Assembly (NCBI RefSeq): GCF_022846255.1
Contig: NZ_AP025682.1
Length of the DNA stretch: 64,000 nt
Direction: 5' to 3' (one strand)
Source: Escherichia coli
GTDB lineage: Bacteria > Pseudomonadota > Gammaproteobacteria > Enterobacterales > Enterobacteriaceae
Shown: one piece after another, positions 36,626-43,599 of the stretch
Numbering within the stretch: the stretch's first letter is position 1
How the letters are laid out: each line of letters begins with the position of its first letter
Program-made: the position numbers and the translations under genes
The notes under the pieces: model-generated
What the model saw: only the letters and a program-made list of their open reading frames with translations
Database searches by the model: none
Told to the model about the DNA's origin: nothing

Positions 36626-37891
36626 TTACGGTTTGAAGTCCAATGGCGCGTTTTTGAACACTTCATATACTGCCTGGCTTGGTGGTTTCGGGATCTTCGC
36701 AAGTTTAGCTGCTGCCAACGCAGCCTGACAAAGTGCGGGATCGCCACCTTCAGGTTTGATATCCAGTAACATACCATCGGGTGCCAGTTTTATGCGCAGC
36801 GTACAGGTTTTGCCTGCATAGGACGATGCGTCATAGAACTTACTTTCGATAGCAGATTTAATCTGCCCGGCATAGTTATTGATATCGGCCCCTGATGCGC
36901 CATTGTTTTTAGTATTACCACTCCCGGCTGGCGAAGCATTGTTCCCTTTCGCCCCTCCCCCCGTTTTCGGTGCATTCTTACCAGAGCTTAGCTCACCGAA
37001 AATATCATCTGCCTCTGCGGCAGCTTTTGCTGCAGCGGCTTTTTCAGCTGCTGCTTTTGCCGCTGCCGCTTTTTTGTCTGCGGCGGCTTTTTCTGCCGCT
37101 GCTTTCTTATCAGCTGCTGCCTTTTCAGCAGCCGCTTTTTCTGCTGCTTTTTTGTCGGCTGCCGCTTTCTCTGCTGCCGCTTTCTTATCAGCTGCAGCCT
37201 TTTCAGCAGCCGCTTTCTTCTCAGCTTCTGCTTTGGCTTTTTCAGCAGCTTCAGTTGCCGCTTTCTTTCTTGCTTCAGCTGCAGCTGCTTCTGCCGCTTC
37301 CGCTTTCTTCTTCAGTGCCGCCGCGGCTGCCTCGGCTTTTTTCTGCGCTTCGGCTGCGGCTTTGGCGGCTTCTGCTTCTGCTTTTTTCTTCGCGTCTGCA
37401 GCCGCTTTCTTCGCTGCTTCTTCCGCAGCTTTTGCATCCGCTTCAGCCTTCGCTTTAGCATCTGCCGCCGCTTTCGCTGCCGCTTCTTCCGCTTGCTTCT
37501 GCTTTAACTCGGCCTGTTTTGCGGCTTCTTCAGCCTGCTTTTTCTGTTCCTGAGCCGCTAACCGCTCTTTCTCAAGTTGCTTCAGGCGTTCCTGTTCAGC
37601 CGCTTGTTTCTCACGCAGTTCTTCAGCAGCCTGCTGTTCCTTCATCTTGCGCTGCTCATCAGAACGCTTCGCGCTTGATTCCTGGCTTTGCATGCGTTTG
37701 TACTGCTCAACTACCGCACCTGAATCAACCATGACAGCGTCGATGGACGAACCACCGCCGCCTCCGGCTGAAGCTTCTATATTCTCATCGAACGAACTCC
37801 AGATCAGCGCCGCAAATAAGATGACATGCAGCACTGCTGAAATAATTATCGCCCGTTTGAGCTTGTCGTTTTGTTCGGTTGCCTTTGACAC
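36626..37891 (-). CDS. tolA: Tol-Pal system protein TolA
   Basis: 421 aa; N-terminal TM, long Ala/Lys/Glu-rich helical domain II, C-terminal domain III. Confidence 0.93.
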   Translation of the reverse strand: MSKATEQNDKLKRAIIISAVLHVILFAALIWSSFDENIEASAGGGGGSSIDAVMVDSGAVVEQYKRMQSQESSAKRSDEQRKMKEQQAAEELREKQAAEQERLKQLEKERLAAQEQKKQAEEAAKQAELKQKQAEEAAAKAAADAKAKAEADAKAAEEAAKKAAADAKKKAEAEAAKAAAEAQKKAEAAAAALKKKAEAAEAAAAEARKKAATEAAEKAKAEAEKKAAAEKAAADKKAAAEKAAADKKAAEKAAAEKAAADKKAAAEKAAADKKAAAAKAAAEKAAAAKAAAEADDIFGELSSGKNAPKTGGGAKGNNASPAGSGNTKNNGASGADINNYAGQIKSAIESKFYDASSYAGKTCTLRIKLAPDGMLLDIKPEGGDPALCQAALAAAKLAKIPKPPSQAVYEVFKNAPLDFKP

Positions 37892-39481: not shown

Positions 39482-39630
39482 TTTACATCCCGGTAATGCA
39501 ACAAAAGTTAGAGCTTTTAAACGCTGCTACTATACGCGCGCGATTGAGGTTTGGGAATGAGGGCAAGTTAAGGGAGCGTAAAAATTTATGGGCCTGACTC
39601 GGCCCATAAATTTTTAAAGAGAATTCTGAT

Positions 39631-39924
39631 TTAAAAGAAGAAGAAAATCAGCCCGACAATGAGAACAATATCGGCAAGCAATGGGCAAAAAATCCCTTGC
39701 CAGAGAACCTTCTGCGGACGAAAGCCCACGCCGTGAATCACACCAGCACAGACGGCCCACATAAGCAGTAAACCATGCCAGATTTCCAGTTCACTGGTCT
39801 TCGCGGCGAAACGTGATGGGTCCCAAAACATACATCCTGCTAACAGAAGTGCCATCACGAAGGAAAGCGCCCGCAGGGGGCGCTTGTCCATTACCGCATA
39901 CAAGGTTGCGATAATCTTACTCAT
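39631..39924 (-). CDS. ybgE: Small membrane protein of cyd operon
   Basis: 97 aa hydrophobic ORF; start ATG overlaps cydX stop (ATGA). Confidence 0.85.
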   Translation of the reverse strand: MSKIIATLYAVMDKRPLRALSFVMALLLAGCMFWDPSRFAAKTSELEIWHGLLLMWAVCAGVIHGVGFRPQKVLWQGIFCPLLADIVLIVGLIFFFF

Positions 39925-40037
39925 CAGATGTCTTCTTGACCGGCTTTGCCTGATTCGACGTGCTCAAGCGCCAGCGCGGTGATTACCCCAAACGAACAGG
40001 CAAGAAGCGTTCCCAGAATCCATGCGAAATACCACAT
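39924..40037 (-). CDS. cydX: CydX, 37 aa cytochrome bd-I small subunit (not in ORF track)
   Basis: Hand translation MWYFAWILGTLLACSFGVITALALEHVESGKAGQEDI, 14 bp downstream of cydB stop. Confidence 0.85.
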   Translation of the reverse strand: MWYFAWILGTLLACSFGVITALALEHVESGKAGQEDI

Positions 40038-40051
40038 TTTTAGCTCCTTAC

Positions 40052-41191
40052 TTAGTACAGAGAGTGGGTGTTACGTTCAATATCTTCTTTGGTGATACGA
40101 CCGAACATTTTCCAGTAACACCAGGCGGTGTAGAGCAGAATGATCGGTACCAGAACCACCGCAACCCAGGTCATGACGTTAAGCGTCAGCTGGCTGGAAG
40201 TTGCATCCCACATTGTCAGACTTGCGTTCATCATGGTGCTGGACGGCATCACAAACGGGAACATTGCGATACCGGCAGTCAGGATGATGCAGGCCAGCGT
40301 CAGGGAGGAGAACACAAACGCCCACGCGGCTTTATCCATACGTGCAGTCAGGATGGTCAGCAGCGGCAGAACCACACCCAGTGCCGGAATAGCCCACAGA
40401 ATTGGCGTGTTGTTGAAGTTAACCAGCCATGCGCCAGCTTCACGAACCACTTCTTTATTCAGCGGGTTAGAGGCTGCGTAATGGTCCATTGTCGATTTCA
40501 CGACATAACCATCGATACCGTACATCACCCATACGCCAGCCAGTGCGAAGCAGACCAGCGTCACCAGTGCCGCCACCTGAGCCGTTGCACGGGTACGCAG
40601 GTGCAGTTCGCCCACGGTACGCATTTGCAGATAGGTTGCGCCCTGAGTAATGATCATCCCTACGCTCACCACACCTGCCAGCAGGCCGAACGGGTTAAGC
40701 AGCTGGAAGAAGTTACCGGTGTAGTACAGACGCAGATATTCATCAACGTTGAATGGTACGCCCTGCAACAGGTTACCGAACGCTACACCAATCACCAGCG
40801 GCGGAACGAAGCTACCAATGAAGATGCCCCAGTCCCACATGTTACGCCAGCGGGTTTCTTCAATCTTGGAGCGGTAATCAAAACCGACCGGACGGAAGAA
40901 CAAAGACGCCAGCACGAGGATCATCGCCACATAGAAGCCGGAGAACGCAGCGGCATAGACCATCGGCCAGGCAGCAAACAGTGCGCCGCCTGCGGTGATC
41001 AGCCAAACCTGGTTACCGTCCCAGTGTGGTGCGATGGAGTTAATCATAATTCGACGCTCGGTGTCGTTACGACCGAGGAAACGGGTGAGCATGCCCACCC
41101 CCATGTCGAAACCGTCAGTGACTGCAAAACCAATCAGCAGAACGCCAACCAGCAGCCACCAGATAAAACGCAATACTTCATAATCGATCAT
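40052..41191 (-). CDS. cydB: Cytochrome bd-I ubiquinol oxidase subunit II
   Basis: 379 aa polytopic membrane ORF. Confidence 0.93.
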   Translation of the reverse strand: MIDYEVLRFIWWLLVGVLLIGFAVTDGFDMGVGMLTRFLGRNDTERRIMINSIAPHWDGNQVWLITAGGALFAAWPMVYAAAFSGFYVAMILVLASLFFRPVGFDYRSKIEETRWRNMWDWGIFIGSFVPPLVIGVAFGNLLQGVPFNVDEYLRLYYTGNFFQLLNPFGLLAGVVSVGMIITQGATYLQMRTVGELHLRTRATAQVAALVTLVCFALAGVWVMYGIDGYVVKSTMDHYAASNPLNKEVVREAGAWLVNFNNTPILWAIPALGVVLPLLTILTARMDKAAWAFVFSSLTLACIILTAGIAMFPFVMPSSTMMNASLTMWDATSSQLTLNVMTWVAVVLVPIILLYTAWCYWKMFGRITKEDIERNTHSLY

Positions 41192-41206
41192 TTGACGACT
41201 CCTGTC

Positions 41207-42775
41207 TTAGCGTGCCGGCTGAGTAGTCGTGGAAGACTGCTCAAAGTGATAGCGACCGGTTTTCAGGCTGCTTGGGCCGAGGCGTGCAAACTTGAACATT
41301 AAGAACAATTCTGCCACCAGGAACAGGGTATACAGGCCGCAAATCAGCACCATTGAGAAGATGAGATCGCCTGCGGTCAGTGACGAGTTCGCCACAGCTG
41401 TCGGCAGCACTTCACCGATAGCCCACGGTTGGCGGCCATATTCAGCCACGAACCAGCCCGCTTCTACAGCAATCCACGGCAGCGGAATACCGTACAGCGC
41501 GGCGCGCAGCAGCCATTTTTTCTCGCCAATGCGGTTGCGGATGACACTCCAGAAAGAGAGCGCAATGATTGCCAGCAGCAGGAAGCCACACGCCACCATG
41601 ATACGGAACGCGAAGTACAGCGGCGCTACACGCGGAATGGAGTCTTTGGTTGCCTGTTGAATCTGAGCTTCAGTCGCATCAGCCACGTTTGGCGTATAGC
41701 GTTTCAGCAGCAGACCGTAACCGAGATCTTTCTTCATGCTATTGAACTGGTCACGAACGGCCTGGTCGGTAGAACCAGAACGCAGTTGTTCGAGCAGAGA
41801 GTACGCCTTCATCCCGTTACGAATGCGTTCTTCATGCTGCACCATCAGTTCTTTCAGGCCGATAACTGGAGTATCCACGGAACGCGTTGCAATGATGCCC
41901 AGCGCGTAAGGGATCTGGATCGCAAATTTGTTCGTCTCCTCTTCCTGATCAGGAATGCCGAACAGAGTAAAGGCAGCAGGTGCAGGTTGCGTTTCCCACT
42001 CGGCTTCGATAGCAGCCAGTTTGGTTTTCTGCACGTCGCCCATTTCGTAACCGGATTCATCACCCAGAACAATAACAGACAGAACGGCAGCCATACCGAA
42101 GCTGGCAGCGATAGCAAAGGAGCGTTTAGCGAAGGCGAAGTCACGACCTTTCAGCATATACCATGCGCTGATACCGAGGATGAACATCGCGCCAGTCACA
42201 TAACCAGAAGCTACGGTGTGAACGAATTTCACCTGAGCAACCGGGTTAAGCACCAGCTCGGAGAAGCTCACCATCTCCATACGCATAGTTTCAAAGTTGA
42301 AATCGGACGCGATTGGGTTTTGCATCCAGCCGTTTGCAACCAGAATCCACAGTGCGGACAGGTTTGAACCGAGCGCCACCAGCCAGGTGACACACATATG
42401 CTGAACTTTACCCAGACGATCCCAACCGAAGAAGAACAGACCTACAAAGGTGGATTCGAGGAAGAAGGCCATCAGACCTTCGATTGCCAGCGGCGCACCG
42501 AAGATATCCCCTACATAGTGGGAATAGTAAGACCAGTTAGTCCCGAACTGGAACTCCATGGTCAGACCGGTAGCCACACCCAGAGCAAAGTTGATACCAA
42601 ACAACTTGCCCCAGAACTTGGTCATATCTTTATAAATCTGTTTGCCGGAAAGGACGTAGACCGTTTCCATAATGGCCAGCAGGAACGCCATACCGAGCGT
42701 CAGTGGCACAAAAAGGAAGTGGTACATCGCGGTCAAGGCAAACTGTAAGCGCGACAGTTCGACTATATCTAACAT
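41207..42775 (-). CDS. cydA: Cytochrome bd-I ubiquinol oxidase subunit I
   Basis: 522 aa from [26 protein letters not shown]-track ORF has one extra Met. Confidence 0.93.
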
Positions 42776-43060
42776 CATGACTCCTTGCTCATCGCATGAA
42801 GACTCCGAGAGTGAACCCCGTTAGAAAGGGTCACACGCATGCCCCAATACAAAATTATTTGCTCGCCTCTATCGTTGCCATTTCATCAAAAGAGGAAAAG
42901 ACAATGATAAAAAAGTTACAAATGTGTTAATGAATAAACCAAATTGATCCCGTAATTATATTACGCCGCAAAATCCTTACAATAAACAGGTTTTTATTGA
43001 GCAAATTTGCATTTTTCGACAGTGATCAATTTATAGCGAAATTGTCACGATCTCACCAAT

Positions 43061-43126
43061 TTGATCTACAACAATTTATCGTGTTTTGCAGATTTTTTTC
43101 AAGAATTAAAAATTGATTTATATCAA
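43061..43126. promoter_or_regulatory. Two FNR-type boxes (TTGAT-N4-AACAA and TTGAT-N4-ATCAA) with centres 52 bp apart, cydAB regulatory region
   Basis: ttgatctacaacaa (43061-43074) and ttgatttatatcaa (43113-43126); spacing fits the remembered FNR-1/FNR-2 arrangement at cyd P1. Confidence 0.6.
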
Positions 43127-43599
43127 AATCAACCACATATGTTAATTATGTGTGAATCATGAGCCACTGGTAACTTTATTGTTAATTTATTGTAACAAAA
43201 CAGCACGGTAAATTACCCACATGGAAATATATAGATAAAAAACCAGTATTTTATTTAACAAAGCCGCTTTATCGACTTTTTATAATACTAATTAGTTAGA
43301 GTAGCTACTTTATTGCCATTTTACATAACATATTTTTATCAACGTTAATTGATTGTTGTCTTTATGAGCAACGTACTGTAAATCCGTCACTTATTGTTTC
43401 ATTGGTAATAATCACAAGAAGAAATAGATACCTTAGGTATAGTCAGATGGAACAAGGATTTTTAAAATAAAATATATATGGTATTAATATTTCCCGATCT
43501 GTATTCAATGATTCGCTCAAAGATTGAAAATCAAGAGAAATTGTTATAGCAGTGATACGAAACAACAAAACGGAATGATTGCCAGCCGTTAGAAAACAC

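Follow-up and report, generated by a model that had tools for sequence, protein, structure and literature searches.

A 37-codon frame between cydB and ybgE in Escherichia coli re-identified as cydX, the gene for the small subunit of cytochrome bd-I

The stretch of Escherichia coli DNA that we analysed (64,000 nucleotides, hereafter the window) carries on its minus strand the chromosomal genes sucD, a gene for a tetratricopeptide-repeat (TPR) protein, cydA, cydB, cydX, ybgE, ybgC, tolQRAB and pal, in this order. cydA (41207-42775) encodes subunit I of cytochrome bd-I, 522 aa long from the RefSeq start, and its product scores 570.7 bits against PF01654 and 1179 bits against the bd-I model NF011677, for which the cut-off is 968; the mechanically called ORF begins one methionine earlier, at 42778. 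cydB (40052-41191, RefSeq WP_000568275.1) encodes subunit II, a protein of 379 aa that scores 369.5 bits against PF02322 and 867.9 bits against the bd-I model NF011579 (cut-off 718), and its ORF closes at 40052 with a TAA stop. ybgE (39631-39924, RefSeq WP_000034602.1), the last gene of the operon, encodes a membrane protein of 97 aa annotated as 'cyd operon protein YbgE', which passes NF007881 with 185.2 bits (cut-off 116) and scores 116.1 bits against PF09600. Between cydB and ybgE, where the initial annotation had placed it and where both the ORF coordinates and the RefSeq annotation locate it, lies cydX (39924-40037, minus strand), for the 37-aa, single-helix subunit X of cytochrome bd-I; the assignment combines the translation, identity to chain 6RKO_X, the family models TIGR02106 and PF08173, and the RefSeq protein WP_000270282.1. 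The gene was formerly named ybgT. In strain Nissle 1917 the corresponding order is sucD, a TPR-protein pseudogene, cydA, cydB, cydX, ybgE, ybgC, tolQ, tolR, tolA, tolB, pal, cpoB and tRNA-Lys.

Translation of the minus strand over 39924-40037 gives MWYFAWILGTLLACSFGVITALALEHVESGKAGQEDI and then a stop, 37 residues that agree letter for letter with the translation made by hand in the initial annotation. The gene was most likely missing from the ORF track because it is short and a length threshold of 60 aa hides it: at this default cut-off the only ORFs listed at its position are ybgE and an antisense ORF of 426 aa, and cydX appears as a 37-aa ORF with an ATG start once the minimum is lowered to 20 aa. 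Kyte-Doolittle averages in 19-residue windows starting at residues 1-7 range from 1.7 to 2.05 and drop to approximately 0 towards the charged C-terminus, with a hydrophobic core at approximately residues 4-24 (about 2.0). This profile fits one transmembrane helix followed by a polar tail, as would be predicted for the single-spanning peptide that the initial annotation had described.

All 37 of the 37 residues are identical to the PDB chain 'Cytochrome bd-I ubiquinol oxidase subunit X' (6RKO_X, E = 8.9e-22), and an identical chain X is present in nine PDB entries, including 6RKO, 6RX4 and 9RZV. The peptide scores 70.7 bits (E = 9.1e-20) against TIGR02106, the NCBI equivalog model for CydX, with a cut-off of 31.6, and 53.9 bits against Pfam PF08173 (YbgT_YccB), with a cut-off of 26.2; its N-terminal 26-29 residues cover both profiles from end to end. 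It has the traits of the CydX family, that is, a length of about 30-40 aa, one hydrophobic helix and the N-terminal aromatic motif MWYF.W..G, and its gene has the placement expected of cydX, on the same strand as cydB, directly downstream of it and within the cydAB operon. A stretch of 801 nt around cydX is matched in 5425 of 5426 complete E. coli genomes, where the RefSeq annotation always reads cydB, cydX, ybgE, and is 100% identical to Nissle 1917, ABU 83972, ATCC 25922 and other strains. The initial annotation had named the peptide CydX and proposed an alignment to CydX as a check; the complete identity to the solved subunit, the scores above the curated cut-offs and the cydX annotation in all but one of those genomes bear the identification out.

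The DNA of the gene varies little. The protein WP_000270282.1 is common to Nissle, the K-12 derivative DH1 and AST46, the cydX DNA of DH1 differs from that of the window by a single, synonymous nucleotide at codon 25 (GAG to GAA), and strain FT130 carries a conservative I7V change. One synonymous and one conservative change across the four E. coli copies compared are too few for a meaningful dN/dS. One of the 5426 complete genomes was without a match to the cydB-cydX-ybgE stretch, two of the matches are plasmid-borne, and the stretch is present twice in at least one genome.

The genes from cydA to ybgE are tightly packed, with gaps of 15 nt between cydA and cydB, 14 nt between cydB and cydX, and -1 nt between cydX and ybgE. 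The cydB-cydX spacer, GTAAGGAGCTAAAA (40038-40051), contains the Shine-Dalgarno sequence AAGGAG (40044-40049), 6 nt before the cydX ATG at 40037, so that the distance from the cydB stop to the cydX start is the 14 nt originally reported. At the other end, the junction reads ATC TGA TGA GTA, and of the two TGA triplets in TGATGA the first is the cydX stop: in TGATG (39922-39926) the cydX TGA (39926-39924) and the ybgE ATG (from 39924) share base 39924, and all three further E. coli copies in the comparison have the same junction. The initial annotation was right that the cydX stop overlaps the ybgE start, and wrong in taking the overlap for one of the 4-nt ATGA type, since a single nucleotide is shared. 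The cydB start is preceded by an AGGAG site, and the pairing energies of the Shine-Dalgarno sequences with the 3' end of 16S rRNA were -8.0 kcal/mol for cydA, -6.9 for cydB, -8.4 for cydX and -2.4 for ybgE. The duplex at cydX is the strongest in the operon; that at ybgE is weak.

That cydA, cydB, cydX and ybgE form one operon is well supported. The four genes have the arrangement of a transcription unit, on the same strand, with short gaps or none and a hairpin after the last gene, and a sequence scan from the start of cydB to the stop of ybgE (39631-41191) found neither promoter-like nor terminator-like sites on the minus strand. The matches of the promoter scan cluster upstream of cydA, in 1.3 kb of AT-rich DNA. 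In published RNA-seq data, the four genes were co-induced under microaerobic conditions, with log2 fold changes of 2.74, 2.74, 2.83 and 1.98 for cydA, cydB, cydX and ybgE, respectively (PMC8910356).

Beginning 14 nt past the ybgE stop, folding revealed a perfect hairpin of 16 bp, AAAAAUUUAUGGGCC ... GGCCCAUAAAUUUUU (39579-39616, minus strand), with a folding energy of -23 kcal/mol (z = -6.3); none of 200 shuffled sequences was as stable. A simple consensus terminator scan found no terminator after ybgE, and it missed this hairpin because the T-run sits inside the stem. The structure, which by its predicted fold is likely to be the intrinsic terminator of the operon, has an A-run on the 5' side and a U-run on the 3' side, and with these could terminate transcription from either direction. 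The K-12-derived DH1 has other bases at three loop positions (39597-39599) and at one stem position (39610) of the hairpin.

CydX of E. coli K-12 (YbgT; chain X of 6RKO and 6RX4) is the same as the window protein at 37 of 37 residues, carries the same accession, and is encoded at the same site after cydB and before ybgE, behind the same 14-nt spacer. AppX, also called CbdX, the small subunit of cytochrome bd-II (7OSE chain C, 7OY2 chain X), is likewise a single-helix peptide with an N-terminal MWY..W..G motif, and it binds AppC, the homologue of CydA, in nearly the position of CydX (PMC8951039). AppX is encoded in the app operon, and its similarity to the window peptide is weak, extending over residues 1-23 only. 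CydS of the Geobacillus thermodenitrificans bd oxidase and CydH/CydY (YnhF) of E. coli bd-I are, as CydX, single-helix accessory subunits (PMC8951039). CydS has been considered similar to CydX but not homologous (PMC13189123), whereas it is treated as homologous elsewhere (PMC8951039). Unlike CydX, CydH binds CydA on the opposite side, and its gene lies outside the cyd operon (PMC8951039). In a search of PDB chains, neither CydS nor CydH/CydY matched the window peptide.

Short ORFs are abundant in this DNA, 136 of at least 20 aa overlapping the surrounding 9 kb, so that the cydX ORF taken alone is not beyond chance, and the gap between cydB and ybgE could in principle hold a 37-codon frame that arose by chance and is left untranslated. 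The significance of the frame comes from homology, and the E-values to 6RKO_X and TIGR02106 given above put it far beyond chance. A chance frame would hardly be identical to a subunit in nine solved structures, that is, one observed in the purified enzyme, nor score above the curated cut-offs of two family models, nor follow a strong Shine-Dalgarno sequence at the correct spacing; in addition, the substitutions between strains are synonymous or conservative, and published genetics (PMC6005532) also argue against it. We rejected a chance ORF on the identity to PDB chain X and the family scores, and consider it exceedingly improbable. Slightly more room, though still very little, can be given to the idea that the real gene lies on the opposite strand, either the 426-aa ORF (40022-41302, plus strand) or one of the short plus-strand ORFs at 39884-40095, an idea suggested by the 60-aa track, where the 426-aa ORF is the only one listed at this position besides ybgE. 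This ORF is antisense to the whole of cydB, whose family model is matched end to end, and overlaps the start of cydX; it belongs to no Pfam family and has no RefSeq annotation, the two grounds on which we rejected it as a real gene. It is most likely a shadow ORF, as its position opposite a real gene suggests. An ORF track with a length cut-off would show this false ORF of 426 aa and hide the real cydX.

The gene could also be taken for its paralogue appX/cbdX, for the small subunit of cytochrome bd-II, given the weak similarity of the peptide to the AppX chains (E = 0.015 to 7OSE_C, E = 0.19 to 7OY2_X) and a sub-threshold match to the CbdX model. However, that match to NF011333 reaches 21.7 bits where the cut-off is 57, against 70.7 bits and a cut-off of 31.6 for TIGR02106, and the neighbouring genes fail the bd-II models (770.6 bits against 1025 for NF011609, 513.7 against 681 for NF011602) and pass those for bd-I, at a locus between sucD and the tol genes. 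With the CbdX score below its cut-off and neighbours of the bd-I type, AppX/CbdX was rejected as the identity of the peptide, and we regard it as the least probable of the readings considered here. It is, on the contrary, practically certain that 39924-40037 on the minus strand is cydX, the third gene of the cydA-cydB-cydX-ybgE operon, transcribed with cydAB and provided with its own AAGGAG site, whose product is the one-helix subunit of cytochrome bd-I.

Cytochrome bd-I is a high-affinity quinol:O2 oxidase used at low oxygen and an antibiotic target. From the arrangement of the locus, cydX would share with cydAB a transcript that starts in the long regulatory region preceding cydA, and translation of cydX would start from the strong AAGGAG ribosome-binding site of its own, 14 nt past the cydB stop, to yield a peptide of 37 residues with a single predicted transmembrane helix. 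According to published structures and genetics, this helix packs on transmembrane helices of CydA, next to the quinol site and heme b558, and stable assembly and activity of the oxidase depend on the peptide. Its presence within the bd-I complex, bound to CydA, is predicted here solely by identity to the solved chain X. In published work, cydA, cydB and cydX constitute one operon and oxidase activity requires CydX; deletion of cydX in E. coli K-12 results in slow growth, sensitivity to reductant and lower oxidase activity, and the N-terminal part of CydX is the most important, the last six residues being dispensable (PMC6005532). For the requirement for CydX, PMC8951039 also cites Hoeser et al. 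2014. In the structures, CydX runs along helices 1, 4, 5, 6 and 7 of CydA, close to the quinol site and heme b558, and its role is considered to be chiefly structural; a fourth subunit of bd-I, CydH/CydY, is encoded elsewhere, by ynhF (PMC8951039). Cryo-EM published in 2026 places CydX at a dimer interface, via Met1-Trp2 contacts and a leucine zipper, and makes it one wall of a second ubiquinone pocket, via Thr10 (PMC13189123). More than 300 homologues of CydX are known, of which 80 were unannotated when they were surveyed (PMC4325964).

The initial annotation had further proposed that the four genes appear to form one translationally coupled unit. The operon is well supported, but a single coupled unit of four genes goes too far: the sequence signs of coupling, an overlapping start and a weak Shine-Dalgarno sequence, are lacking at the cydA-cydB and cydB-cydX junctions and present for cydX-ybgE only. 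With strong Shine-Dalgarno sequences of their own, cydA, cydB and cydX would each be able to initiate translation independently. Translational coupling from cydX to ybgE is plausible from the sequence of the junction: given the overlap of the ybgE start with the cydX stop and the weak Shine-Dalgarno site of ybgE, ribosomes completing cydX would go on to translate ybgE. One could speculate that cydX has a double role, providing subunit X and also delivering ribosomes to ybgE through TGATG, which would tie the output of YbgE to that of CydX and hint that YbgE acts with bd-I, for example in its assembly. We consider this possibility tentative and rather doubtful; if true, it would add only a little to what is known of a much-studied operon. 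With a kanamycin cassette placed between cydX and ybgE, no oxidase phenotype was seen (PMC6005532), so that ybgE does not demonstrably belong to the oxidase function.

The finding described here is the re-identification of a well-studied E. coli gene; it was already known, and nothing about it is new. As the annotation of practically all E. coli genomes includes cydX, whose product is present in nine solved structures, the case has no discovery value and adds nothing to knowledge of cytochrome bd-I. It is useful only as a control, in which a genuine 37-codon gene hidden by a 60-aa ORF filter was recovered, and in which a translation made by hand proved accurate.

The region between sucD and cydA contains an intact gene (44104-45219, minus strand) for a TPR protein of 371 aa, with TPR matches over residues 266-366 and an N-terminal part of 250 residues that matches no Pfam family. 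Its counterpart in Nissle 1917 has an internal stop (W to stop) and carries a pseudogene annotation. Over 12.8 kb the window and Nissle share 99.18% identity, so that the window comes from a related strain and not from Nissle itself. In K-12, the interval between sucD and cydA presumably holds different genes (mngR, mngA and mngB). Upstream of cydA, approximately 1.3 kb of AT-rich DNA (42779-44103) contain short ORFs only, and its minus strand has six sigma-70-like matches, located between 42854 and 43275; the stretch presumably is a multi-promoter regulatory region of cydA. A 114-aa ORF upstream of cydA (43878-44222, minus strand) has no Pfam family. Farther along the locus, tolA (36626-37891, minus strand) encodes a long, repetitive central domain rich in Ala, Lys and Glu, which gives rise on the plus strand to long shadow ORFs of low complexity, such as that at 36879-37553 (224 aa).
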